Position numbers and translations under genes: made by a program
Notes under the pieces: model-generated
The model's input: the letters and a program-made list of their open reading frames with translations, nothing else
The model's database searches: none
Told to the model about the DNA's origin: nothing
Part shown: positions 16,939 through 33,586 of the stretch, piece by piece
How the letters are laid out: each line of letters starts with the position of its first letter
Numbering within the stretch: position 1 is the first letter of the stretch
Virus record (IMG/VR): IMGVR_UViG_3300036546_000144
Location: 1 to 33,905 of that record
Length of the DNA: 33,905 nucleotides
Origin: a virus
Lineage: Duplodnaviria > Caudoviricetes
Reading direction: 5' to 3' (one strand)

Positions 16939-16949
16939 GGTAAATTAAA

Positions 16950-17405: not shown

Positions 17406-17409
17406 CGCA

Positions 17410-17445
17410 TAAAAAAGAGTCTCCCAAGGGAGACTCTTTTTTTTT
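17410..17445. terminator. Bidirectional terminator (GAGTCTCC family)
   Basis: A-run, GAGTCTCCC-AA-GGGAGACTC, T-run, between convergent genes. Confidence 0.85.
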
Positions 17446-17448
17446 CAT

Positions 17449-17874: not shown

Positions 17875-17891
17875 GTTATAACCCCTTTACT

Positions 17892-18233
17892 CTACCAAAA
17901 TAATGAATGTGGGATGGATTCATTACCCACACTATCTCGGGGAAAAAGCGGCTCTATCTTCCGGTTCTTCAACGAAAGTGTGATGGGTAACTTCACCGCC
18001 ACCACATCGTTTTCTCGGTAAACGTTTTCATCAATAGTCACTTCTTCTTCTTGAATCGTGGTATAATAGAAGCTTGCATAGTCCCGATGGAAGTTTTGTT
18101 TAATGAAGTCACGTAAAGCCGGTAATGATGTGTGGACAGCTTTCAGTTGGTATTTTTTCGTTTTGGGATAATGTAAAATCCCCTTTAGAACTTCTTCTTC
18201 GGTTAAGGCAAAATACAGCATGTCATTTACCAT
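17892..18233 (-). CDS. Hypothetical protein, possibly virion
   Basis: 113 aa; coupled to the upstream gene; ends ...GNESIPHSLFW, similar in style to the upstream protein's SFEEPPSIKW. Confidence 0.65.
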   Translation of the reverse strand: MVNDMLYFALTEEEVLKGILHYPKTKKYQLKAVHTSLPALRDFIKQNFHRDYASFYYTTIQEEEVTIDENVYRENDVVAVKLPITLSLKNRKIEPLFPRDSVGNESIPHSLFW

Positions 18234-19357
18234 TTGATAGATGGGGGTTCTTCAAAAGACAGTTTATCGGCATGTAGACCTTTAAGGGTAGACCATTCAC
18301 TGGATGTTACAGTCTGTATATCCAATAAATCAAACTGTTTAAAATCACGTGAACGCTCAAAGGTAATCCGATAGTAACCTTTCTCTAAAACATTCTCAGT
18401 GTCAAACGCAATGGAACCTTCAGAAATCTCCAATAGCATCTGAACGTGGTACAATCGCGTTCTCTTTTTATCCGAAAACGCTGTGGTCATGACTTGTCGG
18501 TAGAAGAAACGACCCACTATTTTGGATGGGTATTTCCATTTCTCTTTACTGTAAGGTACTAACCAACACTCTCCTGACTCTTCAGCATCATACAGGATAC
18601 TTTTATTGGGCCGTAAAACAGTTTCGTTTTCAAACACGTAAATATACCACCCCCCATTCCAGTCGCCCCAATCGTTACTGAAATCGTATAGATCAGAAAC
18701 ATACCCGATCAAACATCCTTTAAGGGTAGGTGCTACAGATACCCTAGGAACTGAACGGTCCTCTTTATTAGCAGTGCGCCTAGAAACGCTGGGTATAAAG
18801 TGTTTAATCTTAGGGTCGGTCGGGATATGAAAAAGTCGTTCGTGGTGTTCGACCGTAACTTTTTTCTTTAATGTTGGATAAGCCGTGTCTAAATATGTCT
18901 GCAGTTTCTCATTATCACTCTCTTGAGATTCCATGGTGATACTAACCCTAAAGTGTTTTATAAAATCGAGTATTCCCGGATAATCGTTAAACCTGACCCT
19001 TAACCCGTCGTCCCAGACTTGTTGGATGTTTTCCGACTGGGTGCCCCACTTCAGGTTATTGGGTTTAACGTTGGTTCGATCATTATCCAAGTGTAAGACA
19101 ACCGCACCGTCAAAGGGTGGTGGTCCTTTAAACGCTAGACACATGATGATGTGTAGGTACTCTAACGTATGTCGTTTGGCCCCGTCACGGTATACCGCCA
19201 CACGAAGGTAGCGACCACTCATAGAGCCCTTAGACACCCTCCCTGTCTTTTTGGTGAGGATCTCCCCTCTGGGGTTAGCACAATACCCTGAGAAGCCCGG
19301 AATTTCAAACCAACCCGTATATTGTTTAGAGGGGATGGGATTAAAAATGTCAGTCAT
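18227..19357 (-). CDS. HNH endonuclease (NUMOD4/HNH_3-like) fused to a phiKZ-type head-protein-like domain
   Basis: N-terminal WFEIPGFSGY...LHIIMCLAFKGPPP...VVLHLDNDRTNVKPNNLKWGTQSENIQ; C-terminal LFHI...FIP...EDRSVPRVSVAPTLKGCLIG. Likely start ATG 19357, overlapping the SNase stop. Confidence 0.8.
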   Translation of the reverse strand: MTDIFNPIPSKQYTGWFEIPGFSGYCANPRGEILTKKTGRVSKGSMSGRYLRVAVYRDGAKRHTLEYLHIIMCLAFKGPPPFDGAVVLHLDNDRTNVKPNNLKWGTQSENIQQVWDDGLRVRFNDYPGILDFIKHFRVSITMESQESDNEKLQTYLDTAYPTLKKKVTVEHHERLFHIPTDPKIKHFIPSVSRRTANKEDRSVPRVSVAPTLKGCLIGYVSDLYDFSNDWGDWNGGWYIYVFENETVLRPNKSILYDAEESGECWLVPYSKEKWKYPSKIVGRFFYRQVMTTAFSDKKRTRLYHVQMLLEISEGSIAFDTENVLEKGYYRITFERSRDFKQFDLLDIQTVTSSEWSTLKGLHADKLSFEEPPSIKW

Positions 19358-19772
19358 GGTAACTACCCAATTTTTCGAACCCTTCTTCAATCAGGATGTC
19401 TTTCAGTAAACGATTGTCAGGGAGTATCACATTCCCCTCAACGCGATTATAGACACCCCAGCCCCATACTTTTAAACGCAACGGTTTTTGAGACAACAGT
19501 TCAGTCGCCCGTACAGTTGCAGCTTCACCGTGGGTGCGTTCTGCTTCTGTTTTGGGTCGCCACGTTTCTGGTGCATCAAAATCCTTAATGCGGACTCGCT
19601 GATCGGTTCGGATACCCAAACCCAAGTCGATTTCAAAATCCATAGTGTCAGCATCCACAATGTTCGTGAGTCTGACTGGAAAGACGTGCGTGGGGTACTC
19701 TTCTGCGATGACGGGGTGACAATGGGTCAGTACCGAGGATAAAATAATGAGTATAAATTTCTTAAACACCAC
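19350..19772 (-). CDS. Thermonuclease (SNase) family protein with an N-terminal signal/membrane segment
   Basis: IVDADT, VRIKDFDAPE and GVYNRV correspond to the SNase DGDT / RLxGIDAPE / D-K-Y-G-R motifs. Confidence 0.85.
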   Translation of the reverse strand: MVFKKFILIILSSVLTHCHPVIAEEYPTHVFPVRLTNIVDADTMDFEIDLGLGIRTDQRVRIKDFDAPETWRPKTEAERTHGEAATVRATELLSQKPLRLKVWGWGVYNRVEGNVILPDNRLLKDILIEEGFEKLGSYHD

Positions 19773-19774
19773 TT

Positions 19775-20575
19775 TTATCCTCTACTTATTTGAAGCTTTA
19801 AGTGCCGTTTGAACGCTTCCGGGTCATTGAACAGGGCAACCTTCTGCCAGACTTCATTGAAATGTTGTTCGTAAAGTTCATTAGCATCGGCGTAACCGTC
19901 TACGATTTCTTTAAACCGACCTAAACTCACACCGCCCGACAATTCAGCCTGGTCAATTTCAATAACCAGCTTATTAAAGATATAAGCCTTGGTAGCAAAT
20001 TCAACCAGTTTACTGAATGCGGGAATGGATTGAGGTTTCAGGTGACTGAATTCGGAATCCGCTTCTAAAACACAGCGTAAGAACAACATACCGGGTAAAC
20101 GCATCGTGTCGCGCACCAGAACCGTGTTCTCACCGATTAAACTGACGTAGGCGGTAGACGTCATGGGTATAGGCAAATGCGCCGCTACAAGCCCGTCTGC
20201 AGCGTCCATCAGCGCACTCCCTTTAAACTGCTGTGGGTTAGTGTAACCTATAACGCCGTTCTGACCAAAACTCAAATGGAGCACCTTGCTGATAGTTCTT
20301 CCCTGGGTCATGCTCTTAGGGATACGGTAAACCGTATTGTAGGTATCAATGTGTTTAGGCACGACATTGTACAGAGGCAACGTGGTTTCAGTACCCCCCA
20401 CCAAATTACAGTCCGGAATAACACGGTCGTTAATGACCTCTTCACGGATACGGTAGTCCAGAGATACTGGGGTGTGGATACCGCCTAACGCAGTGTTCTT
20501 TATAAAAGCGCGTTCTAAAATCTGTCGGGGAATACGGTTTTTAACGTCCGATAACGCTTTCTGAATGGCATTCAT
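19775..20575 (-). CDS. Conserved phiKZ-family core protein (probably gp42-like)
   Basis: 266 aa; MNAIQKALSDVKNRIPRQIL...ATKAYIFNKL; AGGAG RBS; divergent from PhuZ. Number assignment from recall. Confidence 0.6.
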   Translation of the reverse strand: MNAIQKALSDVKNRIPRQILERAFIKNTALGGIHTPVSLDYRIREEVINDRVIPDCNLVGGTETTLPLYNVVPKHIDTYNTVYRIPKSMTQGRTISKVLHLSFGQNGVIGYTNPQQFKGSALMDAADGLVAAHLPIPMTSTAYVSLIGENTVLVRDTMRLPGMLFLRCVLEADSEFSHLKPQSIPAFSKLVEFATKAYIFNKLVIEIDQAELSGGVSLGRFKEIVDGYADANELYEQHFNEVWQKVALFNDPEAFKRHLKLQISRG

Positions 20576-20705
20576 CGTCAGTCTCCTGTAGGGGATAATC
20601 AGTAAATAATAATTGACCTTCTCTATAGTTTAGAGCATCAAAAACGGTAATACTGTGAAGTAACCCGCTTTTCATTGACACTTTCCCATTAACAGGAGAA
20701 TTTAG

Positions 20706-21674
20706 ATGTCAACAGCTAATAAAGGTACAATTCGTCTTTACGGTGCAGGTGGTGCCGGGATTAACTGTATCTCCATTTTCAATAATGTCGAAGAAGTACC
20801 TGGTTGCGCTAAAATCCTAACCAGTTACATTGACACCAGTCGCTCTAACCTGAAGCCCGAATTCAAAGAAGACGATTGTTACCTTTTGAAAGGAGTGGAT
20901 GGTTCTGGTAAAATCCGTCGGGAAAACCACCGTGAAATCTCAGAGTCCATTAAACAGATTCTTTTGGAGCACAAACCCGGTGACTTCAATGTGGTGGTCT
21001 CTTCAGCGTCTGGTGGTTCAGGGAGTGTCCTGGCTCCGCTCTTGCTGGCCGAGTTGCTCAAACGCGGCGAGTCTGTTGTGTACTGTCTGATTGGTTCAGC
21101 CGAGTGTACGGTCACCGCCACCAACACACTGAATACCCTGAAATCAATCGCTGCAATCTCTGAACGCAACGACGTTCCTGCTATTGTTTATTATGAACAC
21201 AATGACGATCGCCCGCGCAGCGAAGTAGATACCTCTATCCGTTACGCCATCGCGACCCTGGCTAACCTGAGTTCACGTCAGAACACAGAACTAGACAGTA
21301 AAGACATTTCCAACTGGGTACGTTTCAATTACAGTACAGGCGTACCGGCCCAGTTAGCACTCCTGGATGTTTTCACTGACCCGGACCAGGTGTCATTGGT
21401 TAAAGACCCAATCTCCATTGCCAGCCTTTACAACGACCCCGACCAAACCAAGGTTAAAGCAACACCTGAATACAGCTGTGTGGGCTATATGACCAACAAA
21501 CCCAAAGACTATGACCAGATTCACTTGGTTATCTCGACTGAAGGTTTGGAAGGGATCTACGACAAGATTGGTGAAACAGTTAACAGCTATGTTGAACGTC
21601 GTGAAGGTCGCCAAGCCAAACTTCGCATCGTCAGTGAGAATGATAATGTGACTGACGATTACCTCGTACTTTAA
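20706..21674 (+). CDS. phuZ: Phage tubulin PhuZ
   Basis: YGAGGAG loop, IDTS, G(S)GK(I)R, tubulin signature SASGGSGS, ELDSKD T7-like loop, acidic C-tail DDYLVL. Confidence 0.92.
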   Translation: MSTANKGTIRLYGAGGAGINCISIFNNVEEVPGCAKILTSYIDTSRSNLKPEFKEDDCYLLKGVDGSGKIRRENHREISESIKQILLEHKPGDFNVVVSSASGGSGSVLAPLLLAELLKRGESVVYCLIGSAECTVTATNTLNTLKSIAAISERNDVPAIVYYEHNDDRPRSEVDTSIRYAIATLANLSSRQNTELDSKDISNWVRFNYSTGVPAQLALLDVFTDPDQVSLVKDPISIASLYNDPDQTKVKATPEYSCVGYMTNKPKDYDQIHLVISTEGLEGIYDKIGETVNSYVERREGRQAKLRIVSENDNVTDDYLVL

Positions 21675-21898
21675 TGAATAGGTGTTACATGACCACTGGA
21701 TTGTTTGTGTGTGAAAGCTGTAACTGTGTGGACCATATTGAATTGGCGTACACGGTACAGGAGAGACAGTACGACCACGCCCAGTGGTTGTGTACAGAAT
21801 GTCAAGGAAAACCTTGGCATAACCAATTCCCTAAACTCCCTTTCGATGAAACAGAAGACAACGTTGTAAACTACCCCAGTGGAATTGGTCTGGGTTAA
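21674..21898 (+). CDS. Small Zn-finger-like protein
   Basis: CESCNC...CTEC...WHNQFPK; start overlaps the phuZ stop. Confidence 0.7.
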   Translation: MNRCYMTTGLFVCESCNCVDHIELAYTVQERQYDHAQWLCTECQGKPWHNQFPKLPFDETEDNVVNYPSGIGLG

Positions 21899-21902
21899 TG
21901 TG

Positions 21903-22068
21903 TATAGTATGCAAGTGTTAGTTCCTTTTCTGTCGATGCGCTGCTCTTTAACAAATCGGACTAAAGAACGGGTTTATACAAACCCGTTCTTAAACTTGTC
22001 GATCGTCTTTACGGTCTTCTTAAGCATTCGTAAATCGTATGAATGCGACCCTTGAATGGGTCACTATA
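21903..22068 (+). ncRNA. Candidate structured RNA (~165 nt, five stems)
   Basis: Consecutive stems TTAGTTCC/GGACTAA, AAGAACGGGTTT/AAACCCGTTCTT, GATCGT/ACGGTC, GCATTCGTA/TATGAATGC and GACCC/GGGTC, closed by TATAGT/ACTATA; followed by a terminator. Confidence 0.45.
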
Positions 22069-22075
22069 GAGAGAA

Positions 22076-22106
22076 CCTCCCCTTATTAGGGGAGGATTTC
22101 CTTTTT
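22076..22106 (+). terminator. Probable intrinsic terminator
   Basis: CCTCCCCT-TATT-AGGGGAGG followed by ATTTCCTTTTT. Confidence 0.65.
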
Positions 22107-22154
22107 ATGCTCTAAATTATGAAGGTTACCTTTAATAAAGTATAGGACTTTAAA

Positions 22155-22874
22155 ATGTTTGAGAGAATGTTACTCTCCGGTACAGCCGGAGGGAAAGGAA
22201 AAGGGAGAAAACTAGGACTGTTTAACCGACCCTTACTCGCCAGTGACGGAGGCGTGGACTGGTATGGGGAGGTTACGAGTGAGGAATTGATTGATGGGGT
22301 AGGTTTAGCCAGTCTGATAGGGTTAACCGCAGGTACAGCTCAGTATCCCGATGCAGGTTGGCTCCACGTAGGACTGGATGGTGGACCGGATCTCTTTGTT
22401 GCGAAGAAGCCTTTGCGCTACAACCTGACAGCGGCAGAGGCAAAGGTCGCAGGTCTGTATTTGGGACATGAAATCGAGATTGAGGGTGTCAGATACCGCG
22501 TACGTAATCTGGAGGGTGTTAATAAAAATGCCACATACGGCAGCAACACAACCTTGTACGACTCTGTCGAAACCCATGGGACCGAATGGAATCGGATCAT
22601 GTACCGATTGGTGAAGCCTTCAGAAATAGGCAGCCAGATCGCGTCTGATACCACAGTGTCCGAAGGTGAATATGTACCGTTGGCATCCTATAGTTATGAT
22701 GAGCTTGGCATAAACGCTATGAATGGATCACTGTCCATCACGAATGTTCGAGGTCGGCCGGACGTTAATGCATTCTTCAGAGGAGGTGGAGCGGTCTCGT
22801 CAGTACATAAATCGACAACTTATAGCTATAGTGGCACAAATCGCGGCTGGCGTCCTGTACTCGAGCGTGTGTAA
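22155..22874 (+). CDS. MFERMLLSG paralog family copy 2
   Basis: Same conserved blocks as copies 1 and 3; ends GWRPVLERV. Confidence 0.75.
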   Translation: MFERMLLSGTAGGKGKGRKLGLFNRPLLASDGGVDWYGEVTSEELIDGVGLASLIGLTAGTAQYPDAGWLHVGLDGGPDLFVAKKPLRYNLTAAEAKVAGLYLGHEIEIEGVRYRVRNLEGVNKNATYGSNTTLYDSVETHGTEWNRIMYRLVKPSEIGSQIASDTTVSEGEYVPLASYSYDELGINAMNGSLSITNVRGRPDVNAFFRGGGAVSSVHKSTTYSYSGTNRGWRPVLERV

Positions 22875-22883
22875 AAAACTACA

Positions 22884-23392
22884 TAGGACCAGATGATATA
22901 GACGACAAGTACGTCTTAGGTCCTAGGTTAATCTCTAGAGGGATTGAAAATTTAAACCTTATTACTGAGGTAGCGCTTGGTGATATAAAGAGATGCGCCC
23001 ACACTACGTTAGCTGACGAGTTGGGAAGTTGTAAACGAAAACCATAAGAGAGTGAAACTTCGCCGATATAGGTTTTGCTTAAGGTTCAGTGTGCAGCCTT
23101 TAAGGTATCAACAGGTAAATGTCGACCACTACTTCTGGTACCTTAATGGAAGCACGTTGGTGTGTTGCGTAAACGAGTGAGGTGCAATCGGAGTTTTCTG
23201 ATTCCTTTGGCCGATTGTAGGGGGTTGCGGGACCCCACCAAACTTGTACCCGGCTTTTAATCCGACTCGGTGTTCGAGGAGTAGACTGCAACTCTTCTTT
23301 TAGTGAGGTTTCCGGTATAACCTCGTTCACTGGTACACTGAGTCGTTTTAAGAGTATGACATTCCGTAGGACGGGGTAGCGGACCTTTTCAA
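22884..23392 (+). ncRNA. Candidate large ornate non-coding RNA (~520 nt)
   Basis: No credible ORF; at least nine stems with G-U pairs on the + strand, including a long-range helix TTCAGTGTGC/GTACACTGAG; ends at a strong terminator; about 1 kb from the tRNAs. Confidence 0.55.
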
Positions 23393-23393
23393 A

Positions 23394-23429
23394 AATTCAG
23401 CGGGGCGAAATCTCCGCTGAATTATTTTT
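23394..23429 (+). terminator. Intrinsic terminator
   Basis: AATTCAGCGGGG-CGAAAT-CTCCGCTGAATT followed by ATTTTT. Confidence 0.8.
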
Positions 23430-23458
23430 GCGTTTAAGAAGGACTAGAGGAAAAGAAT

Positions 23459-23932
23459 ATGTATTCAACATATCTTAGTGCGCTAAATGATTTATCTGGT
23501 ATAATGGACTCCGTCTATAACACTGTATGTGATTATGCTGAACATATGCCACAGGTGTTAATAAAAGAATTTCGAACAGCAATAGTACACGGACCCAGAC
23601 AGACCGGTAAAAGTCGAGCAGCGGTGAATTTCTATAGTAACCAAGAGTGTGCTATACTGGTAGTGCCTAACCGGGTCCATGTTGTATCAATGAAGCAATG
23701 CGTTAACCACGTGTTTGTCGAAACAACTTTGTCAAAATCGCAAAGCGAAAAAATAATCACGGCATCAAAATTACTCAAGCTGCTAAATGAATATGATTCA
23801 ACACTTTTAAAGGAAACCGACATTTTTGTTTTGGACATCATGGGTAGTCCTGAAGAAGGTGAGCTGATATCCAGTTTAACGGATTGGCTAACAAAAAATA
23901 AACGATTTAAAAGTAAAGTTTTTATTTTATAA
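23459..23932 (+). CDS. Small P-loop protein with a terminase-like Walker A
   Basis: IVHGPRQTGKS, AILVVPN and DIFVLD (Walker B-like); GAGGA RBS. Confidence 0.7.
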   Translation: MYSTYLSALNDLSGIMDSVYNTVCDYAEHMPQVLIKEFRTAIVHGPRQTGKSRAAVNFYSNQECAILVVPNRVHVVSMKQCVNHVFVETTLSKSQSEKIITASKLLKLLNEYDSTLLKETDIFVLDIMGSPEEGELISSLTDWLTKNKRFKSKVFIL

Positions 23933-23937
23933 AAAAA

Positions 23938-23961
23938 AAAGACAGGCTGCAGCCTGTCTTT
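23938..23961. terminator. Terminator-like palindrome
   Basis: AAAGACAGGCTGCAGCCTGTCTTT perfect palindrome after the stop codon. Confidence 0.6.
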
Positions 23962-23971
23962 CTATGCTGTT

Positions 23972-23996
23972 TAAAATTAATTCAGGTATATATTAT
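23972..23996 (+). promoter_or_regulatory. Phage early promoter motif, copy 5 (upstream of the tRNA region)
   Basis: TAAAATTAATTCAGGTATATATTAT, identical to copy 6. Confidence 0.75.
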
Positions 23997-24471
23997 CAAA
24001 TTGAACCAATAACCTTAATGAAGGCGAACACATGATTAACTATTACGGTATACTTAAAGAGGTCCTATCTCCAACGCCATAAAAGTGATGTTAGCTAACT
24101 ACGCTGACCCCTAGTAAGATTAAAATTTTTGAACTGTAAGGAAAAGAACATGTTCACAGAACCGATGGCGGGAGAGGCTCGTATTGTGTGGTCACACGTA
24201 AGATGGCTGAAATTACAGAATCGGTCAGACCCATTTACTTACTAAAGTAAAAAAATACTTCCCTTCTAAACGTATGACGAACTAACATTCGTTCAAACAT
24301 AGTGAATACCTCCTGTTGTAGATCGGAGGGTGAAATTAAGTAACCCTCCACCCACTTAGAAACTCGTGTTCGGGTAAATATGGTAAAAGCGTTCAGAGTA
24401 ATGGGGAAACGTTAGGTCGCCTTGAACTAACGTTATCCTATTAAAAAAAAAAGACTGATTAAAAGTTTTAT

Positions 24472-24558
24472 ACGGGTATGGCCAAATCGGTAAAGGCAAC
24501 AGATTTAAAATCTGTCGGTGTTAGCACCTTGCGAGTTCGAGTCTCGCTACCCGTACCA
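24472..24558 (+). tRNA. tRNA-Leu (anticodon UAA)
   Basis: Acceptor ACGGGTA/TACCCGT + A + CCA; anticodon arm ACAGA-TTTAAAA-TCTGT; long variable arm GGTG-TTAG-CACC; T arm GCGAG-TTCGAGT-CTCGC. Confidence 0.95.
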
Positions 24559-24562
24559 CTAT

Positions 24563-24639
24563 GATCCTGTCTAACAAAACAAAACGAACCCACTCGTTGA
24601 CTGGTAACTTCAGAAACTACCATCGCGTTAGACAGGGTC
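24563..24639 (+). ncRNA. Candidate small three-way-junction RNA within the tRNA cluster
   Basis: 13-bp closing stem GATCCTGTCTAAC/GTTAGACAGGGTC enclosing the hairpins AACGA/TCGTT and TGGTA/TACCA. Confidence 0.5.
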
Positions 24640-24728
24640 TCACTATTAGGGCCTATAGCTCAGTTGGTCAAGAGCATCCGTAAAAAAATATTATTTGTAT
24701 GTGTGCTCTAACCAAAGCATAATTAGTT

Positions 24729-24805
24729 GTCCCTGTAGCTTAGCGGTCTAAAACAGCAAGCTCATAACTTGTAAATCGTGGGTTCAAATCCCACCGGGGA
24801 CACCA
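24729..24805 (+). tRNA. tRNA with CAU anticodon (elongator Met or Ile2), nested inside the split tRNA
   Basis: Acceptor GTCCCTG/CGGGGAC + A + CCA; anticodon arm GCAAG-CTCATAA-CTTGT; T arm GTGGG-TTCAAAT-CCCAC. One D-stem mismatch; lacks the initiator 3 G-C pairs. Confidence 0.9.
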
Positions 24806-24829
24806 CTTAAAAATTTTAAGGATTATGCT

Positions 24830-24881
24830 ATGAAAACCAAAATAGAACTAGACTACCCATACACCAAAAGATGGAAAACAG
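24830..24881 (+). pseudogene. N-terminal remnant of a probable HNH homing endonuclease
   Basis: AAGGA RBS; MKTKIELDYPYTKRWKT resembles the start (KIxLEYP..W.xGY) of HNH genes I recall from phage tRNA clusters; the frame then runs into the tRNA 3' half. Confidence 0.5.
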
Positions 24882-24931
24882 AATCCATTGGTCACAGGTT
24901 CAAGTCCTGTTGGGCCCACCATACATTAAAT

Positions 24932-24960
24932 AAAAGGAAAGGGTTTGACCTTTCCTTTTT
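24932..24960 (+). terminator. Terminator of the tRNA cluster
   Basis: AAAAGGAAAGG-GTTTGA-CCTTTCCTTTTT. Confidence 0.8.
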
Positions 24961-25026
24961 ATGCCGACAACCCTAAGGACGGTGTGAATTTTGAACGTTA
25001 CTTTTCACTTTGTAAGGAATCAATAA

Positions 25027-25638
25027 ATGAATAAAGTAGTATGGAACAAAAACGCAGTGTGGGCACGTGACTGTAAAGATCACCCGGAAGTTCGAAGTAC
25101 GTCGTATGGTGAAGTATTCGAGATATTAGGCACTGCTGGGTGTTCACGAGAAGAACCGTTTTGGTCATGGATGGTGTTGGGGGTTTTGGAGACCGAACGC
25201 GGTAAACAGTTGGTGTGTCCCGGTGACAGCATCATTGAAATTGTAGAGGGTGTATACCTGGTGACAAGTGACACTGATTTGGCTGTCAAAATAGTAAATA
25301 GGACCCAACCCCAATATCCAATAATAGGTACAATCAATTTGTACCTGAATCCACACTCGTTCAGTGATGACCGTTTGGGTAGACTTTTAAAGTTTAAACC
25401 GACGAAAGACGGACCGAAGCTCCCGATGTCCACTACCAAATATAAAGCTACTCCCCAAAATACTGAGAAATACGGTAACGTCGAGTTAACTTTCATATCC
25501 AATCATGAAATCTTTGATCTGAATACTTGGGACGGTTTCAATGATGTTTCTCAAGTTACAGAATTTTTGTCGAACGGGACTAGTGAGCGACAGGTCTACT
25601 TATTCTTTAAGGAGTTCTTACGTCTTATCTGTACGTGA
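25027..25638 (+). CDS. Hypothetical protein
   Basis: 203 aa, AAGGA RBS. Confidence 0.75.
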   Translation: MNKVVWNKNAVWARDCKDHPEVRSTSYGEVFEILGTAGCSREEPFWSWMVLGVLETERGKQLVCPGDSIIEIVEGVYLVTSDTDLAVKIVNRTQPQYPIIGTINLYLNPHSFSDDRLGRLLKFKPTKDGPKLPMSTTKYKATPQNTEKYGNVELTFISNHEIFDLNTWDGFNDVSQVTEFLSNGTSERQVYLFFKEFLRLICT

Positions 25639-25903
25639 AGTAAAAACTACGGGTTTTAATATCTTATAGACAAAAAAGTCGCCATAAAACAAATAAGGGG
25701 GGTGAATTGCTACTTAATCTATTTGCCCCCTGGGCAATCCTTTAAAATACTTTCCATAAAAAGCCGCTTTGACAAAACATTTTGTGGTATGTCAGTGACG
25801 TCGTGTAGGACTTGAGACTGACGATAAAAAAAAATGCTAAGGAGGGACTGACCCCCTCCTTAACTTTTATACGGTTTCTTTTTTTTTTTGAGGATAAACG
25901 TTA

Positions 25904-26248
25904 ATGAAAGCTATTCCCGTAAAGATAGTGGGCGACCAAGGGTTTAAGAAATGTGACTTACAAGAATGTACTCACGTGATGATACATATACCCAGCAGAA
26001 CCTACCCCGAATCACTACCCGTCATTCTGAAAGGTAGTCGCGACAATAGTGGGGGATGTTGGAGTTGGAATGGCGACTCTCTTGATCCCACTTTAAGACC
26101 CAGTATTTTAACTGTGAATCCAGGGACAGGTTTTCGGTGCCACAGTTTTGTTAATGATGGAAAGGCTAAATTCCTTACCGACTGTAGCCATAACTTAGTT
26201 GGTCAGGAAGTGGATCTTTTAGAGGTCGACCCAAAATTTTACCAGTGA
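25904..26248 (+). CDS. DUF6527-like metal-binding protein
   Basis: WSWNGDSLDPTLRPSIL...RCHSFVNDGKAKFLTDCSHNLVGQEVDL; GAGGA RBS. Family from motif recall. Confidence 0.7.
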   Translation: MKAIPVKIVGDQGFKKCDLQECTHVMIHIPSRTYPESLPVILKGSRDNSGGCWSWNGDSLDPTLRPSILTVNPGTGFRCHSFVNDGKAKFLTDCSHNLVGQEVDLLEVDPKFYQ

Positions 26249-26496
26249 AATAAAGAGTTCTCTCAACACAATACTATAGGGGGCGGCCGCAATCAAGACA
26301 AATCCGATTAGGGGTACGTTGAGACCACCACTTGAACAGGAAAGCGTTGTTAGGTCGCTCTTTTTATATGACTCTGGGTGTGACACCTTAAACCGAATGC
26401 TTGTCGTTTTCTCCCCTTTTACGACAACTTCGTCCATGTCCACTCAGAGTCTCCCACCTTTTTTTATACGCTTATTTTTTTATAGGGAGCAACGTT

Positions 26497-26739
26497 GTGG
26501 TTAAAAAGGTTCAGGTTAGGATAAAGCGTGGGGCCACTATTTTACACAACAATAAATTAGGTAAGTGGCCTGTAACTGAGAAAGGGCGGATGGAACATGT
26601 AGATATGATCTTTGATGGGGTTCACAAGATTCTAAATGGTGAGGTTTTGTGGGAGTGCACATCCAAGGGATACGGAAGTACAGGACATTATGGTCACGGT
26701 ACAATTACAGTATTTGACCAGGCAGTTGAGGTCGTTTAG
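26497..26739 (+). CDS. Hypothetical protein
   Basis: GTG 26497 after AGGGAG, in frame with the track ORF 26401; followed by the hairpin CTCCTAGCCCC/GGGGCTAGGAG. Confidence 0.6.
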   Translation: MVKKVQVRIKRGATILHNNKLGKWPVTEKGRMEHVDMIFDGVHKILNGEVLWECTSKGYGSTGHYGHGTITVFDQAVEVV

Positions 26740-26863
26740 TCTCCTAGCCCCACAAAGGGGCTAGGAGCTCCACTATACCGTTTTAAAGTTAAAAGTCACA
26801 TAGATCCACCATCTTATAGGAACGTCCCGTAGAAGCCAAAATAGAAAGTTCTAGGGATTGTGT

Positions 26864-26888
26864 TAAAATTAATTCAGGTATATATTAT
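26864..26888 (+). promoter_or_regulatory. Phage early promoter motif, copy 6
   Basis: TAAAATTAATTCAGGTATATATTAT. Confidence 0.75.
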
Positions 26889-26926
26889 CTAGGTAGACAC
26901 TTTACACTAGAGAAGGAAATGATGAC

Positions 26927-27427
26927 ATGCGGTTACCTTGTTTTAATGACGTGCATCCCAAACCACTAGAACACTGTCGACCCAATCAGTTGGTGAACAT
27001 CTACCTGATGACGTCTTATCTTTATTACCATTTGGACGAAAGTGTGATAACAGATGCTGAGTTCGATTACGTCTGCACTGAACTATATAAACATTTTGAC
27101 GACATTACACACCAGCACAAATATCTGATAGATAAGGATCAGCTAATAGCCGGTACAGGCTACTATATAGCCCACAACGAGTTTCCCAATATCGTAATAG
27201 GCGGTGCTAAGATGTGGTTAAAGGAGTCCCTCTCGCGACAAGGTCGTTGGGGGACACGAAAAGTAAAAAAGTCCCAAAAGGAATACGTCCGTAAGAAGAT
27301 CATTGCTAATACAGTGGAGGAGATTAATGGTTGCATGTCCAACATGGGTTTATGGGATGCCAGCATTAATTCCATCGACCGGATAAATCCCCGTACAGTA
27401 GTGGCCACCGTTGACTGTTTAGAATAA
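26927..27427 (+). CDS. Protein containing an NAD+-dependent DNA ligase domain Ia-like module
   Basis: SYLYYHLDESVITDAEFDYVCTEL matches the LigA Ia pattern YY-x-x-D-x-P-x-I-S-D-A-E-Y-D; no KxDG adenylation motif. Confidence 0.65.
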   Translation: MRLPCFNDVHPKPLEHCRPNQLVNIYLMTSYLYYHLDESVITDAEFDYVCTELYKHFDDITHQHKYLIDKDQLIAGTGYYIAHNEFPNIVIGGAKMWLKESLSRQGRWGTRKVKKSQKEYVRKKIIANTVEEINGCMSNMGLWDASINSIDRINPRTVVATVDCLE

Positions 27428-27450
27428 CTTGACAATTAAGGAATCCAGTT

Positions 27451-28014
27451 GTGATATACGTCCTCCCAATCAACGAAATGTCCCGCTCGTTTCATGGTCA
27501 AACCTTACGTTTCCTGGAAGAGAAAGAGCTCGACCCTTCAATGTTCTCTTTTGCTAAATGTGAAGCGCTTGTAACGGCCGTCCTTTACAGGGTTTTGTAT
27601 GACAAGTTTTATTGGATCCCCTACGAGGAAGAAAGGCATCACGCTGGCCTAAGTGTTAACGACGACGGGGCAGTCGTCATGACATTCCAACCCTTGTCTT
27701 CTAATAGTCAGCTCTATAACGCTGAAGAAGAATATGTAAGAGCCTTGACTCGACTGTTCGATTGGATGACCACAGATGCCGAAGAAGAAGACTTGTGCAA
27801 CCCCACCGTTTTGAAAGAAGTGATGATTACCAATCAGTATGATTCGACGGTTGTGGATGACGTGTGGTTATCTATCAACGAGTTAGTGAAAATGGCTATA
27901 CCAGAGAAAACCTGGAAAGTTTGGGAAGTCCAACGTCTGGGCTGCGACCTGTACTTGAAAGAAGGTGAAGATTATCGCATCAAAGATTGGATGAAGCGCC
28001 ACCGGGGAGTTTAA
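27451..28014 (+). CDS. Hypothetical protein
   Basis: GTG start after AAGGA; first of a tightly packed run leading to the DNA polymerase. Confidence 0.75.
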   Translation: MIYVLPINEMSRSFHGQTLRFLEEKELDPSMFSFAKCEALVTAVLYRVLYDKFYWIPYEEERHHAGLSVNDDGAVVMTFQPLSSNSQLYNAEEEYVRALTRLFDWMTTDAEEEDLCNPTVLKEVMITNQYDSTVVDDVWLSINELVKMAIPEKTWKVWEVQRLGCDLYLKEGEDYRIKDWMKRHRGV

Positions 28015-28019
28015 CCGAA

Positions 28020-28466
28020 ATGGTTAAAAACTACGTATTTAATATCGCGGACTGTGAGAAAATTATCCAACACGGACTGGAACCTTACATCGGTGTGGTG
28101 GTACTCTACTCTAACTTCCAGCCCATTGTTCACTCAATGGTGGAAAACTATCTGTACGGTAGTCCTTTGTCGTCCTTACCTCAAATCACAGGTATGGTTC
28201 GCGCGTATGGGGTCCCAACTGACGTCGCAGAGGAAATCGTCCTTTCAGCCAAAAACCCACTGACCTTAATGCTCTATGAGGTTATGGGCCCACTGAATCC
28301 GGATTCAGCCTATGACTTTGAGATCACGCCACTTGGGGACCTTAAAATAACCGAGATGACTGCCCAACCACCTACTGAAGAACAGCTATTCATAGAAAGT
28401 ATACGGGAAGGCGTGAGTCGCGGCGATTACTACCCCGAGCATCTCAGGCGTTTAGCAGGAGTATAA
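28020..28466 (+). CDS. Hypothetical protein
   Basis: ATG 28020 after GGGGAG. Confidence 0.75.
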   Translation: MVKNYVFNIADCEKIIQHGLEPYIGVVVLYSNFQPIVHSMVENYLYGSPLSSLPQITGMVRAYGVPTDVAEEIVLSAKNPLTLMLYEVMGPLNPDSAYDFEITPLGDLKITEMTAQPPTEEQLFIESIREGVSRGDYYPEHLRRLAGV

Positions 28467-28468
28467 CG

Positions 28469-28873
28469 GTGCAATATACCAAAGAACCCTTTTACAAAAT
28501 GGTGATCGCTCGTAATGAGGTCCCGTTAGTCCGTCAGGACGTTTTGTCGGGGTTGGGGTATAGTCAAGACATGTTTGTCTCGTATGTGGTATTCACACTG
28601 CCGCTATTAGACTTGAGCGACGTCGATGGTTCGATTTCGTCATTTCTTGATGAGTTGATATCTGATGTATTGAATATAGAGGAGTCCCTCCCGGAATGGG
28701 TGGGCTTCCTTTATGATGAGTATTATAAAGTGGCGTACCAGCTCTCTAAATACACCTTCCCTTATCTGGATAATATTTCTAGTATGGAAAATGTGTTTCT
28801 AGAAGGGTTGTCACTGACCAACTCCCCCCAAGACCCGTATTACGTTATTGAATTTGAGATTTATACCGAATGA
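28469..28873 (+). CDS. Hypothetical protein
   Basis: GTG after AGGAG; ATGA overlap with the next gene. Confidence 0.75.
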   Translation: MQYTKEPFYKMVIARNEVPLVRQDVLSGLGYSQDMFVSYVVFTLPLLDLSDVDGSISSFLDELISDVLNIEESLPEWVGFLYDEYYKVAYQLSKYTFPYLDNISSMENVFLEGLSLTNSPQDPYYVIEFEIYTE

Positions 28874-29316
28874 ACGAAAAGGAACGCATTATGCGATTAA
28901 AGCAAGGCATCTTTTATATGAACGTGGTGTTGGATACCCGTTCGATTTATATGAGGGTGTTGGATTCAATTTCGGCATTATCGGAAGGTGACGTTACCTC
29001 CACGAATATTCTAGAGTGTACGTTTCGAGCGTGGTCGATGTCCACTAACTCCATCGTAGACCTCAATTGCAATGGTTTTATAAGTCCACGTGATGCCATA
29101 ATGATCACGGTAGCTGAATTCTGTGGAGCCGACGCCAGAAGTTCCGATGTGGGGTGTGAAACCAAGTTCACTAAACTGTGTGAACTCTGTCACGACATTT
29201 ATTTGGACATTGCACCCCAACTCGATAACGCGTGGTTCCTGGTTAATGAAGTGCGTGACATAAAAGTCAAGCGCTTTGTTGGGAAGGACATGGTTGTGGA
29301 AATTGAATACAATTAA
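28870..29316 (+). CDS. Hypothetical protein
   Basis: 148 aa, translationally coupled. Confidence 0.7.
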   Translation: MNEKERIMRLKQGIFYMNVVLDTRSIYMRVLDSISALSEGDVTSTNILECTFRAWSMSTNSIVDLNCNGFISPRDAIMITVAEFCGADARSSDVGCETKFTKLCELCHDIYLDIAPQLDNAWFLVNEVRDIKVKRFVGKDMVVEIEYN

Positions 29317-29329
29317 ACAGGTGGTCGAA

Positions 29330-29800
29330 ATGATAAGTGAAAACATCATAATTGACAGTGAAGTAGATTACCGGATTTTCTACGCCACGACCTCAGCAAT
29401 GTCGAATGTTGATTATGACCCTATTGAAGTCACTGCCTTAATCTTCAATGAGTTGAGGTCGGCAACCGCTATAGAAGAGCGCCTTGAGGCGTTAGCCGAA
29501 TCTTTCAAAGATAGGGGACGTTCACCCGATGACATTAAAGACGGTCAAATCCTTTCGGTTGCAGTAAGGACGTTGGCTTTTTCTATGTTGGAGTGGGTTC
29601 GTAAAATTGGACTTTACAACGAACAAGGCAAGATGACTTATACATTTGAAGAACTCTTGTCGGGTAAAACCGTTCGACTCAGTAGAGACACGTGCTCAAC
29701 CAAAGTCAGTATTCCAGCTGGACCTTTGAAAAACTTTTTTCAAGAATGGTTAAACGAAATAAGAAGTACGAACGACAAAAAACTTAGACTTATAAGGTGA
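29330..29800 (+). CDS. Hypothetical protein
   Basis: ATG 29330 after AGGTGG, in frame with the track ORF 29276. Confidence 0.7.
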   Translation: MISENIIIDSEVDYRIFYATTSAMSNVDYDPIEVTALIFNELRSATAIEERLEALAESFKDRGRSPDDIKDGQILSVAVRTLAFSMLEWVRKIGLYNEQGKMTYTFEELLSGKTVRLSRDTCSTKVSIPAGPLKNFFQEWLNEIRSTNDKKLRLIR

Positions 29801-29808
29801 AGTCGTGA

Positions 29809-30120
29809 ATGAAATACGTCATTGTTGAGTGTTCCGAAATCACACTTGCACTGAAGATAGTGCAGCGTATCATTTTCCCAGACTGTGAGGTCGGGTACGA
29901 AGCTAAACAACAGTGTCGGTCGGCAGTTGAAGAATTGCTTCTGAGTTACTTAGGTATCCGCGACACTCTGTTGGAAGATGATAGTATCTGGGTATACGAG
30001 GAATGTTGTGACCTCTTTGAGTTACTGACAACCAGACCAATCTGGCAGGACTACGAACACGAAATCGAAGCTGTAAAGTTGATTGATTTCAGGGGTGGTC
30101 TACTAATTGAATTAAAGTGA
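29809..30120 (+). CDS. Hypothetical protein
   Basis: 103 aa, in an operon. Confidence 0.7.
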   Translation: MKYVIVECSEITLALKIVQRIIFPDCEVGYEAKQQCRSAVEELLLSYLGIRDTLLEDDSIWVYEECCDLFELLTTRPIWQDYEHEIEAVKLIDFRGGLLIELK

Positions 30121-30129
30121 GGGGGCGTC

Positions 30130-30537
30130 ATGTCCAATTTCGATTTATTGAAACCTAAAGCAGTCGTGAACTTTGATGTTTATCCTGCTGCTATACTGGG
30201 TTCTAATTTTAATAACGTTCGCGTTGAAGCTATACTGGATGCTGAGACCGCTCGAATGATTGGGTACGATCCGTGGAGTATGCATGTTAACGTGTATCCT
30301 ACGCTCCCTGAAGGGACACCTAATGACCCTAATGACTACCTCTTTGTCCGACTGAAGCTTGAGTCGGGGGAAAGTGCTATTGTAGGACTGCCTTGGATTC
30401 GAGAAGAGTCCATTGAACAAGTCAGTTACACCACCATTTCACTGAAGATTCCTAACGTGGGACCAGGTGACGTTGAGAAGGTGGTTAAAGCGTTGTCAGC
30501 GAATGGTTATAAAACCAGTGACATTAAATTGGTTTAA
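30130..30537 (+). CDS. Conserved phiKZ-family protein (probably gp49-like)
   Basis: VNFDVYPAAILG...HVNVYPTLPEGTPNDP...IVGLPWI; from recall it normally lies just before the DNA polymerase gene. Confidence 0.65.
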   Translation: MSNFDLLKPKAVVNFDVYPAAILGSNFNNVRVEAILDAETARMIGYDPWSMHVNVYPTLPEGTPNDPNDYLFVRLKLESGESAIVGLPWIREESIEQVSYTTISLKIPNVGPGDVEKVVKALSANGYKTSDIKLV

Positions 30538-30541
30538 TGAC

Positions 30542-30570
30542 GAGTCTCCTTCGGGAGACTCTTTTTTTTT
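30542..30570 (+). terminator. Intrinsic terminator (GAGTCTCC family)
   Basis: GAGTCTCC-TTCG-GGAGACTC followed by T9. Confidence 0.9.
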
Positions 30571-30616
30571 GTCTTAAACTATGAGTATACTCAAAAACCA
30601 CTAAAGGTCATTTAAA

Positions 30617-31321
30617 ATGTTTGAAAGAATGTTACTCTCCGGGACAGCCGGAGGGAAAGGAAAAGTGAAAAAGGCGGCTTTATTTAACCGACCCCTACTC
30701 GCCAGTGACGGTGGGGTCGATTGGTACGGGGAGGTTTCCAGTACTGAATTAATCGATGGGGTAGCGTTAGCCAGCCTGATAGGGTTAACCGCAGGTATAG
30801 CTCAGTACTCGGATGCAGGCTGGCTGTACGTCGGGTTAGACGGTACTGAATTATTAATCGCAAAACGTCCTTTGCGTTATGGCCTGACCTGGAACCATAT
30901 CAATGAGGTCAACGCCGTGTACGGGAACCGTACCATCGAAATAAACAGTCAGCTCTATAAAGTCCGCCTCCTTAAAGGGGCGAACTCCGACCCTACAGTA
31001 AACGCAGAAGGTTATGACGTTCCCTCCTCTCACGGGAGTGAATGGAACCGTATTTTCTACCGGTTAACCAATGACACCTACCTCAACAGTCAGAATACCA
31101 AAGCCTCTGAGGGCGAGTTTACTCACTTAGCCCGGTATTCCGAGAGTGATTTACTCTTGTACCACAGTTCCGGTAACGGGAGCTACTGCTACTGTCAAGA
31201 AACCTCAGGGAGTAACCGAGTCGCTCGCGGTGGCATGGGCGTTTCTTTCTTGAGTATGCGCGGGGCACCGACTGCGGATTCGGGCCGTGGTTGGCGTCCT
31301 GTACTCGAGCGCGTCAATTAA
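30617..31321 (+). CDS. MFERMLLSG paralog family copy 3
   Basis: Same conserved blocks as copies 1 and 2; ends GWRPVLERVN. Confidence 0.75.
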   Translation: MFERMLLSGTAGGKGKVKKAALFNRPLLASDGGVDWYGEVSSTELIDGVALASLIGLTAGIAQYSDAGWLYVGLDGTELLIAKRPLRYGLTWNHINEVNAVYGNRTIEINSQLYKVRLLKGANSDPTVNAEGYDVPSSHGSEWNRIFYRLTNDTYLNSQNTKASEGEFTHLARYSESDLLLYHSSGNGSYCYCQETSGSNRVARGGMGVSFLSMRGAPTADSGRGWRPVLERVN

Positions 31322-31334
31322 TAAAACATAGAAA

Positions 31335-31362
31335 AGAGTCCTCCCGTGGGTGGACTCTGTTT
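31335..31362 (+). terminator. Terminator-like hairpin, near copy of 8142-8169
   Basis: AGAGTCCTCCCGTGGGTGGACTCT. Confidence 0.65.
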
Positions 31363-31429
31363 ATGACCTAAAAGTCTTTTTTAACAGACAGGTTCTATAG
31401 TCTGAACGTAACAAAGGAGTTCTCTAAAG

Positions 31430-33571
31430 ATGAAGAATCATTTTTTAAAACCCGCCAATGAATACAGTCGTGACTTGAACGTTGTTAAGAACTATAAAGA
31501 AGATATGGCGTTGTTCTTGTCTAAACGCACCGGTAAACCACTTGAAGTGTGTCAGGAATACATGGAAAGGGAAACAGGGAAGGGTGGTAAGTTTGAACTC
31601 AAAGAACCTCGGGCACTGTGCTTGACCCGTAATAAACACGGGGACCGAGTTAAGGAGGCGATTCCCTATTCAGAATACCTCAGGGACATCGTCGAAAACA
31701 AACGCTTGATGTCACCTGCAATGACGGTCTACCTCAACCCCGAAGACAAGCCCAGTATTTTGGCTGAATACATCAGTCAGAACATCGCTAACCGTGCACG
31801 CGTTAAGAAAGAAGGTATCGCGGCTAAGATGGCGGGTGATCAAACGCTGGCTGACATCAAAGAAAACGAACAGACCACCTTTAAGATTGCCAACAACTCA
31901 TTGTCGGGTGCTCAGGTATCACCTCACACCATCTTGTATAACAAGTCAGCTCACTCCAGTTTGACCTCTACGTGTCGCACCGCCACCAGTTACGGTAACG
32001 CAAACAATGAAAAGTTTTTATGCGGTAACCGCCACTACTGGTGCCCGGACGTCGTGAAAGCGAACATTGTTTCTATCTTACGGCATGTTGACTTCGATCT
32101 CATCAAACAAGCAATGGATCACTTTAATCTACACTACCCAACCGCCGAGGAAGCGTTAGAGTGTGTAACCTATTCCACCGACTTGTATTGGAAGAACGAA
32201 CACGAAATTTCTGAAATTTTTGAACTATTGAAAAGACTCACGCCACTCGAGCGTGCTACGTTTATTTATGTAGGTGACCTCTACCACCTCAGGAAATACA
32301 ACGACGACGTAGTAAGGAAATTCATTGGGACGCTGTCCACCAAAGCAACGACCCCGTTGGACGATCCCGCGCCGTACATGACTAACTTGGATAATGACAC
32401 CAAGGCGTTTGTATCACTACTCTGTACGAAGGAGTTGAATGGTGAGGTATTGGATAAACTGGCCGATAAAGACCCAGAAGCCTATGCTAAAATAGCTCAC
32501 ACGGTTAAAAACACCTTTGAATGTCTTGACCAACACCAATTACTGATTAAAGCCTTTTGGACAACCGATAACGTCCCTGCAAGCATTGCCTATCTTAGGG
32601 ACAGTATCCGCCGTGCGGCTGTTACGTCAGACACAGACTCTACTATCTTCACGACACAAGATTGGGTAGAGTGGTATGTGGGTGAGATTAACTTCACAGA
32701 AGAAGCCAACGCTGTTTCGTACGTCATGGTCTACTTGGCCACACAAGCGATTATACACGTCCTGGCTATACAGTCTACAATCATGGGGGTTGTTCCAGAC
32801 AAACTCAATGTGTTGGCTATGAAGAACGAGTACGCCTTCCCGGTCTTCAGTTTGACGGCTATGGCAAAACATTATTACTCGTATATGTCGGCACGTGAAG
32901 GTAACGTGTTCAAGGAGTTTGACCTTGAAATCAAAGGAGTGTACCTAAAGGATTCCAACTGTCCCCCAGCAGTCATGAAACAAGCGCAAGACTTGATCTG
33001 TGACATAATGGACAATGTCATTGCCGGGAAGAAGATGTCTATAAACGCCCTTTATCAATTGATAGCGGGGATTGAAAAACAGATCATCGATTCCATTAAG
33101 TCAGGTTCTTCAGAATACTTGGCAGGTGGCTCTGTTAAAGACATAGGTTCCTACACCAATCCTTCATCTTCACCCTACCAGCATTATTTGTTGTGGCAAG
33201 CGATATTCGCTCCGGTTTATGGGGACGCACCTCCTCCCCCTTACTCAGCGGTTCGAATTTCTTTGGACATTAATAACAAAACTCAAATGCAGGCATGGGT
33301 CGATAGCATTCAAAACCCTGATATCAAAGAAAACCTTATCCGTTGGATGAAGGATCAGAATAAAACAGTTATACCCACACTTTTACTACCACGACCCGTT
33401 GTGGAAATGGTAGGGATTCCTAAAGAAATAGTACAAGGTATGGATATTCGTAAGATCGTGTTCTCGATCACGCGACCGTTCTACCTGATCCTGGAATCGC
33501 TCGGTGTTTATATGAAAAACGATAACAATACGCGTTTGATTTACGATACTGTATACGGTGAGACTATTTAG
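31430..33571 (+). CDS. Family B DNA polymerase, catalytic subunit (phiKZ gp50-like)
   Basis: Motif B-like KIANNSLSGA, motif C SDTDSTIF, AKHYY and EIKGV; no N-terminal exonuclease motifs, consistent with the split polymerase of this family; AAGGAG RBS. Confidence 0.88.
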   Translation: MKNHFLKPANEYSRDLNVVKNYKEDMALFLSKRTGKPLEVCQEYMERETGKGGKFELKEPRALCLTRNKHGDRVKEAIPYSEYLRDIVENKRLMSPAMTVYLNPEDKPSILAEYISQNIANRARVKKEGIAAKMAGDQTLADIKENEQTTFKIANNSLSGAQVSPHTILYNKSAHSSLTSTCRTATSYGNANNEKFLCGNRHYWCPDVVKANIVSILRHVDFDLIKQAMDHFNLHYPTAEEALECVTYSTDLYWKNEHEISEIFELLKRLTPLERATFIYVGDLYHLRKYNDDVVRKFIGTLSTKATTPLDDPAPYMTNLDNDTKAFVSLLCTKELNGEVLDKLADKDPEAYAKIAHTVKNTFECLDQHQLLIKAFWTTDNVPASIAYLRDSIRRAAVTSDTDSTIFTTQDWVEWYVGEINFTEEANAVSYVMVYLATQAIIHVLAIQSTIMGVVPDKLNVLAMKNEYAFPVFSLTAMAKHYYSYMSAREGNVFKEFDLEIKGVYLKDSNCPPAVMKQAQDLICDIMDNVIAGKKMSINALYQLIAGIEKQIIDSIKSGSSEYLAGGSVKDIGSYTNPSSSPYQHYLLWQAIFAPVYGDAPPPPYSAVRISLDINNKTQMQAWVDSIQNPDIKENLIRWMKDQNKTVIPTLLLPRPVVEMVGIPKEIVQGMDIRKIVFSITRPFYLILESLGVYMKNDNNTRLIYDTVYGETI

Positions 33572-33586
33572 TCTGACGGTATAGTG

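Follow-up and report, generated by a model that had tools for sequence, protein, structure and literature searches.

How does a phage genome come to hold a complete tRNA gene between the two halves of another, broken tRNA gene, and what has broken it? This question is raised by a short tRNA region in a virus record of 33.9 kb (33,905 nucleotides, hereafter the window), for which an initial annotation, made from the sequence alone, had proposed that an HNH element invaded the anticodon arm of a resident tRNA gene. Our analysis suggests, with a probability of roughly 0.8, that the locus is a decayed "cut and replace" homing cassette without an intron, which destroyed its target tRNA gene and brought its own replacement.

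The phage and its tRNA region

The window belongs to a phiKZ-like jumbo phage and encodes a PhuZ tubulin, a divergent family B (phiKZ-type) DNA polymerase, a terminase and virion proteins, and no protein named chimallin was among the 20 window proteins passed through general family scans. The best phage match of the tubulin was Xanthomonas phage LucasX (46%), megablast with positions 15000–33905 revealed no close cultured relative, and neither the downstream protein nor the exact 5′ half gave a match in the viral contigs searched. Two complete tRNA genes were detected by ARAGORN and Rfam in the window, namely a tRNA-Leu(UAA) at 24472–24558 and the nested tRNA(CAU) listed in Table 1. AUA accounts for 77 of the 386 Ile codons in the 17 main ORFs, so that an AUA-reading tRNA would plausibly be useful to the phage. 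At 18227–19390 (minus strand), a second, unrelated HNH_3 domain was observed, fused N-terminally to a phrog_5043 protein.

Table 1. Features of the split tRNA locus (window positions).
Feature	Position	Strand	Evidence
5′ half of resident tRNA-Ile2(CAU) gene, tRNA positions 1–26 (acceptor strand and D arm), now a scar	24649..24676	+	26/28 identical to Churi tRNA-Ile
Left part of cassette, TCCG and AT-rich spacer	24677..24728	+	absent from empty allele (joint 24676–24882); 49/52 identical in L143
Complete nested tRNA(CAU), likely Ile2, likely a working replacement	24729..24805	+	ARAGORN, Rfam (61.8 bits); 74/77 identical in L143
RBS-like AAGGA	24818..24822	+	7 nt before ATG at 24830; sequence only
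HNH stub, 17 codons and first base of codon 18	24830..24881	+	15/17 identical to P0218 N-terminus
3′ half of resident tRNA-Ile2(CAU) gene, tRNA positions 37–76 with CCA	24882..24921	+	36/40 identical to Churi tRNA-Ile
Terminator-like hairpin at the end of the tRNA region	24932..24959	scanner lists minus strand	11-bp perfect stem; partly kept in L143

The split resident gene

The two halves had been described by the initial annotation as having fully complementary acceptor strands, a gap of about 205 nt and no anticodon, and these statements were borne out: the acceptor stem pairs at 7/7 positions, one of them a G.U, the T stem at 5/5, the insert between the halves is 205 nt in length, and tRNA positions 27–36 including the anticodon are missing. 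Half-tRNA profiles were derived from complete tRNAs (154 halves), and when the whole window was scored with them, the orphan halves reached E values of 0.0037 and 4e-5, comparable to the halves of the two intact tRNAs, and the next-best background matches only 1.7 and 0.28. A single annotated tRNA-Ile(CAU) of the Phikzvirus Churi matches both halves. According to PMC1635315, the marks of a tRNA-Ile2 are the CAU anticodon, the Ile-specific G3-C70, C4-G69 and C5-G68, with C3-G70 being usual for Met. The split gene carries G3-C70, C4-G69 and C5-G68, and its CAT anticodon is read from the unbroken allele of a relative (see below), identifying it as a tRNA-Ile2(CAU) gene.

The TCCG that follows position 26 does not pair with the 3′ half of the window, and similar CTCCG remnants are present in two other loci of the family, L063 and L068, so that, speculatively, the cassette might have come from another tRNA allele, of whose anticodon stem TCCG is possibly a remnant. 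The conservation of the left spacer in the related IMG/VR locus L143 is not above the genome background. A cassette promoter before the nested tRNA gained no support, as the 8/12 sigma-70 match seen by eye lies below the threshold and the scanner gave two sites against 1.7 ± 1.2 by chance.

The nested tRNA

The complete, sequence-divergent tRNA(CAU) that had been noticed inside the insert is called by both ARAGORN and Rfam. It shares 23 of 40 bases with the resident 3′ half (17/40 differ), and the 5′ strand of its anticodon stem differs from the resident at 4/5 positions, with the anticodon loop being the same. Its sole E. coli match is a CAU tRNA annotated as tRNA-Ile (E 7; 54/77 overall). 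C4-G69 and C5-G68 are present and initiator marks are not (no A11-U24), but the gene has C3-G70, which speaks against Ile2 and is nevertheless also found in the matched E. coli tRNA-Ile(CAU); on balance the nested gene is probably an Ile2. The window's copy has a private C11.A24 mismatch in the D stem, which is absent from the relatives, and the copy in L143 is structurally better (72.7 vs 61.8 bits).

An 11-nt inverted repeat (24713–24723 and 24822–24832) flanks the nested tRNA and could cover the leader and RBS of the HNH gene in a precursor RNA. As a general feature of such loci this flank helix was rejected, since 53 of 2000 shuffles were as good in the window and 55 of 2000 in L080, 10 other loci were unremarkable and three were too short.

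The HNH stub

The peptide encoded after the nested tRNA had been likened to the N-terminus of HNH homing endonucleases, and the searches agree. The closest among the family members listed is P0218 (Table 1), and when all 1331 six-frame segments of the window were compared with the profile of this family, the stub ranked first (E 0.00085). The family is PF13392 (HNH_3) or phrog_14913; the stub itself contains no HNH domain. By tblastn against 50,697 phage records, the peptide matched only one sequence, the N-terminal part of a putative homing endonuclease from Aeromonas phage P19 (E 0.3), and this P19 protein served as the entry point to the PF13392 family search. A weak PDB match to the HNH homing endonuclease 1u3e was also obtained (E 0.044). 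The putative RBS proposed upstream of the 17 codons is likewise present, as AAGGA. It had also been stated that the 17 codons stop abruptly at the 3′ half; this holds for the homology, which ends at residue 17, but not for the reading frame, which stays open through the 3′ half as an ORF of 48 codons, and a word search gave no longer homologue of the 48-aa ORF. Since residue 18 of P0218 is a Gly, the lone G preceding the 3′ half belongs to codon 18, as its first base, and does not mark the end of an intron.

Linkage of the HNH family to tRNA genes

The HNH family is large, with 2108 matches. Our survey included 89 strong loci, 82 among the matches listed (IMG/VR and metagenomes) and seven from hand-picked cultured phages, of which 79 were left after 90% dereplication and 59 had enough flank; tRNA halves were found by profiles. 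Among the matches listed, a complete tRNA lay within 150 nt of the HNH gene, on either side, in 41/59 loci, and some tRNA feature was observed in 53/59, compared with any plus-strand tRNA in only 1/53 weaker HNH loci. The HNH gene lies between halves with at least 6/7 acceptor pairs in 14/59 loci among the matches listed, or 13 without L087, which was dropped because its downstream part is a whole tRNA; cross-locus control pairings reached 6/7 in 17/182 trials, and the count is lenient because a register shift of 2–3 nt was allowed.

Three layouts were revealed among the split loci: half-HNH-half; half-tRNA-HNH-half, the type of the window (L063, L080, L129 and L136); and half-HNH-tRNA-half (L071 and L082, and by eye L110 and L117). 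A complete nested tRNA was thus called in six of the 13 split loci, upstream of HNH in four and downstream in two, so that the arrangement of the window recurs with intact HNH genes in phages unrelated to it. The seven others have no ARAGORN-called nested tRNA, with some holding a degenerate one, which means that tRNA genes are split by this family without rescue as well. CAT is found in the remnant as well as in the nested gene of L063 and L080, and in L129 and L136 a remnant that by eye is Ile2-like surrounds a tRNA-Ile(UAU), another AUA reader. Cassettes with tRNA-Ile(UAU) inside apparent tRNA-Ile2(CAU) remnants were observed in L129 (1380–1950), L136 (1331–1896), L119, L082 and L110, and from their sequences these could possibly represent a switch from lysidine-dependent to lysidine-independent AUA decoding.

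The stop codon of HNH ends 38–39 nt before the CCA end, that is at anticodon-loop positions 36–38, in 12/21 loci with a close 3′ half (10/18 without duplicates). The 3′ half of the window starts at position 37, as if the deletion had taken the T of a likely TAA stop. At the family loci the leaders are too short to accommodate an intron, and no Rfam intron match was obtained in the window or in 16 family loci, in line with the earlier suggestion that the insert had no self-splicing intron.

Among the 19 cultured-phage loci examined, LucasX harbors a half-HNH-tRNA-Thr-half arrangement with 7/7 acceptor pairs, Aeromonas phage P19 and Vibrio phage 1.026.O harbor simple splits (half-HNH-half), and YF01, Bas91 and HPP-Temi carry a 5′ scar followed by HNH and a whole tRNA; in all of these the tRNA halves are unannotated in the records. 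An intact tRNA(CAU) is found at the syntenic site in 3/3 P19 relatives compared, and at one site the tRNA(CAU) bodies of three Aeromonas phages are all different. The reading of the split P19 gene as a tRNA-Lys is doubtful, since the relatives have tRNA(CAU) there, and the joins of halves proposed by the intron mode of ARAGORN were rejected as false. HNH genes in split tRNA genes without a replacement were observed in L001 (P19, 2451–3043), L057, L058, L059, L068 and L159, some of them with nearly complete halves and the HNH stop codon in the anticodon loop. The Acinetobacter phages Bestia (L137) and AM24 (L154) have, at the same locus, a tRNA-Thr followed by HNH in one and HNH followed by a near-identical tRNA-Thr in the other. 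Among Kuravirus phages, an HNH-tRNA-Arg block is present in some and absent from others.

These layouts bear on a stepwise history, in which HNH alone broke the tRNA gene and the replacement was acquired afterwards in a separate event, favored by selection for AUA decoding, without any co-mobile unit at this locus. Loci of the half-HNH-half type without a nested tRNA do exist (P19, L057, L058, L059, L068 and Vibrio 1.026.O), and a tRNA of the nested type occurs without the stub in metagenome contigs of X2 and X3, the X3 contig continuing from a loose end at 24805 into hairpin-like sequence and not into HNH. However, the complete tRNA stands directly beside HNH, on either side, in the 41 of 59 loci counted above among the matches listed, the tRNA-HNH block inside halves in six dereplicated loci and LucasX is a poor fit to independent chance rescue, and the halves of P19 look decayed, with a non-canonical T loop. 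We therefore consider a stepwise origin unlikely, and favor a cassette in which HNH and its replacement tRNA moved together.

Allelic states of the site in relatives

The metagenome comparison covered four of the 14 listed runs, including X1, X3 and X6. The initial annotation had anticipated an empty allele and alleles with a full HNH ORF among relatives; the former was found, and no intact HNH at this very site was read among the alleles of the relatives. The empty allele, known from a single X3 contig (depth 3.05, with 30 letters on the short side), is 92% alike over 24387–24676, including the phage's own flank and the D loop; after 24676 it continues with ten letters ending in CTCAT, which contain the CAT anticodon, and then with 24882, giving an unbroken tRNA. 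The truncated allele was observed in an X1 contig, perhaps from the window's own source sample, which spans 24443–26300 without a difference, and in an X3 contig of 186 nt from another study, which covers 24726–24911 with three differences (depth 2.6) and has 30 letters to the right of the junction, one below the 31-letter threshold. A longer allele is present in an X6 contig from a third study, where the scar and the nested tRNA are followed by 519 letters instead of 103 and the window sequence is rejoined only at 24914. This insert, known by its length, has room for a full HNH gene, but it rejoins so late and gave no alignment to the stub at 80%, so that it may be something other than HNH.

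The resolved allele is that of L143, whose tubulin is 99% identical to that of the window and whose DNA is 92–95% identical. Here the 5′ scar (25/28), the spacer and the nested tRNA are joined straight to the downstream flank, and both the 3′ half and HNH are deleted, which we infer to have occurred between two CACCA ends. No close family member was found elsewhere in the L143 record, which is 16% complete and gave one weak HNH match (E 1.7e-5). The nuclease had been predicted to have been lost after the invasion; this fits the presence of only a stub in the window and the entire loss of HNH in L143 with the nested tRNA retained. Overall, empty, truncated and resolved alleles are found at the same site in close relatives, and the nested tRNA is the sole part kept in every occupied allele. 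A search with a 17-nt anticodon-arm pattern gave five matches, all unrelated tRNAs.

Three further explanations are weighed by these alleles, and even jointly they are quite improbable. In the first, two neighbouring tRNAs of the cluster decayed independently around a free-standing, SegB-like HNH gene, and the look of one gene is only apparent. Pseudogenes occur in phage tRNA clusters, and acceptor stems do pair across loci in the control trials mentioned above; against this, the X3 relative joins exactly these halves into one intact tRNA, which largely refutes the explanation, both halves match the same Phikzvirus tRNA-Ile, and the layout recurs with a stop codon in the anticodon loop, so that separate decay can hardly be correct. 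In the second, the insert represents a present or former intron, of the group I or the protein-spliced type, and the two halves become one again in the RNA. A group I intron of a proteobacterial tRNA-Ile breaks the gene at position 36/37, after a G, as the 3′ break does here, and some half-HNH-half loci keep nearly complete halves. Nevertheless, no Rfam ribozyme core was matched in the window or the 16 family loci, that G is explained as the first base of the conserved Gly18, the exons are incomplete, so that ligated halves lacking positions 27–36 cannot give a tRNA with an anticodon, and L143 has lost the 3′ half altogether; group I ancestry was rejected on these grounds, and splicing of any kind is very improbable. 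An assembly artefact from tRNA repeats is scarcely credible, for although tRNA segments are common to many organisms in the samples and many foreign tRNA pieces aligned, the X1 contig spans the locus without a difference, the contig from the other study has the same stub-to-half junction, and L143, which comes from a different collection, shares the left part; the locus is real, and no assembly chimera as far as the contigs show.

Other variation was observed around the site. A branched hairpin at 24563–24639 (L143 5452–5540), located in the gap that separates tRNA-Leu from the 5′ half, is predicted to fold much more stably than its shuffles (z −5.5 in the window and −5.4 in L143), although only 64/90 letters are identical between the two and both strands of the long stem contain changes, and it gave no Rfam match. 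Small stable RNAs occur in T4-type tRNA clusters, and the hairpin is possibly a similar RNA. At the neighbouring tRNA-Leu(UAA) site, L143 (5364–5451) contains a different intact allele, 57/88 identical to that of the window, and the X6 contig carries the 5′ half of the L143-type tRNA-Leu allele in front of a window-type tRNA-Leu gene; judged by these sequences, the tRNA-Leu(UAA) at 24472–24558 has the appearance of a completed swap resembling that at the tRNA-Ile2 site. A 203-aa ORF at 25027–25638, with no Pfam, PHROG or IMG/VR relative, is found in X6 and is absent from L143. Paralogous virion-protein-like genes are located at 8176–8880, 22155–22874 and 30617–31321, and those starting at 22155 and 30617 have near-identical N-termini and both fall within gaps of the L143 alignment.

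Proposed mechanism

For the "cut and replace" cassette, the following course might be envisaged by analogy with homing endonucleases. During a mixed infection, an intact HNH enzyme would introduce a nick or a cut, in or close to the anticodon, into the unbroken tRNA gene that a related phage carries, and repair from the donor would copy the cassette in, with the D arm or the upstream flank and the 3′ half serving as homology. The insertion would split the recognition site, so that the new carrier is protected, and the divergent nested tRNA would be a poor substrate and could take over decoding, reading AUA after lysidine modification if it is an Ile2. Once the site is occupied, the nuclease would no longer be selected and would decay, in the window probably by a deletion that began with the second base of codon 18, reached tRNA position 36 and included the T of the likely TAA stop, and in L143 by a deletion between the two CACCA ends that removed HNH and the 3′ half. 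The net outcome would be one tRNA allele swapped for another. The further idea of the initial annotation, that such swaps could serve to evade host anticodon nucleases, is conjectural, the resident and nested alleles having identical anticodon loops and differing in their stems.

Comparison with known systems

SegB of T4 and T6 is a free-standing GIY-YIG homing endonuclease of the tRNA cluster, which targets conserved tRNA gene sequence with a T-loop motif in related phages (PMC2330249); it can also bring about the amplification of a tRNA gene that counters the Septu defence (PMC13096335). Of the known systems it is the one to which the present family comes closest, as an intron-free nuclease gene linked to phage tRNA genes. 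However, SegB is of the GIY-YIG type and lies between intact tRNA genes, with no split or nested tRNA described in the accessible parts of these accounts, whereas the present locus has its HNH_3 gene within a tRNA gene, and the family scans gave HNH only and no GIY-YIG domain. Free-standing Seg and Mob endonucleases, which include HNH members, are mobile without an intron or intein and cause co-conversion of flanks; they are described as intergenic, with the cut site hundreds to thousands of bases away (PMC2988022). Like them, the gene studied here belongs to an HNH family, lies outside any intron or intein and is present or absent at the same site in relatives. Unlike them, it is located within the target presumed for it and is accompanied by a complete substitute gene, and since it is inside the tRNA gene and not intergenic, it would be a variant of intronless homing and not a plain member. 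Free-standing HNH genes that split conserved genes are known as Aeh1 mobE in nrdA and T4 mobA in gene 60 (PMC2988022), but the split proteins there reassemble and are functional, whereas the tRNA halves here have no anticodon and can be deleted (L143).

With group I introns that carry homing endonucleases in tRNA and phage genes (PMC12908238, PMC3984707), the cassette shares the insertion into the anticodon region of a tRNA and the self-protection by splitting the target. It differs from them in having no ribozyme and in being rescued at the DNA level by a spare gene and not by splicing. Some integrative elements rebuild the 3′ end of the tRNA gene into which they integrate, and here too the invader brings sequence that keeps the tRNA function; unlike in those elements, there is no integrase or att duplication, and a whole divergent gene is supplied while the resident is lost. 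Homing endonucleases of nucleus-forming phages have to be imported into the nucleus, and they can be of use in competition (PMC12908238).

No published description of an HNH gene together with a replacement tRNA inside a split tRNA was found in the literature covered, chiefly open-access articles without supplements, and the nested HNH-tRNA layout is not described in the accessible text of PMC5418858 and PMC1524935. The vibriophage phi-pp2 is reported to have a 465-nt insert adjoining an extra Met-tRNA (PMC3468402), which possibly is an unrecognised case of such a cassette.

Meaning for phage tRNA genes

Most likely, the locus is a spent member of a recurrent cassette of HNH plus a spare tRNA, a variant of intronless homing, and it supplies an unusually complete series of alleles with the states before, during and after. 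More tentatively, and with rather less confidence than even odds, such cassettes might constitute a widespread and so far undescribed class of natural tRNA-gene drives of the "cut and replace" type and be a main engine of tRNA allele turnover in phages, with a full cycle at tRNA-Ile2 and an apparently finished tRNA-Leu swap in this lineage, and with imported alleles that may persist by escaping host tRNA-cleaving defences. If true, homing endonucleases would have, in addition to introns and inteins, a third means of residing inside a conserved target without depriving the carrier of that gene's function, namely a recoded spare. It would also explain the unnoticed orphan tRNA halves that flank HNH genes in GenBank records (P19, LucasX and Vibrio 1.026.O) and the strong divergence of syntenic phage tRNA genes between close relatives, and, as far as sequence comparison can suggest, it may be a route by which phages change their tRNA bodies under the pressure of tRNA-targeting defences.
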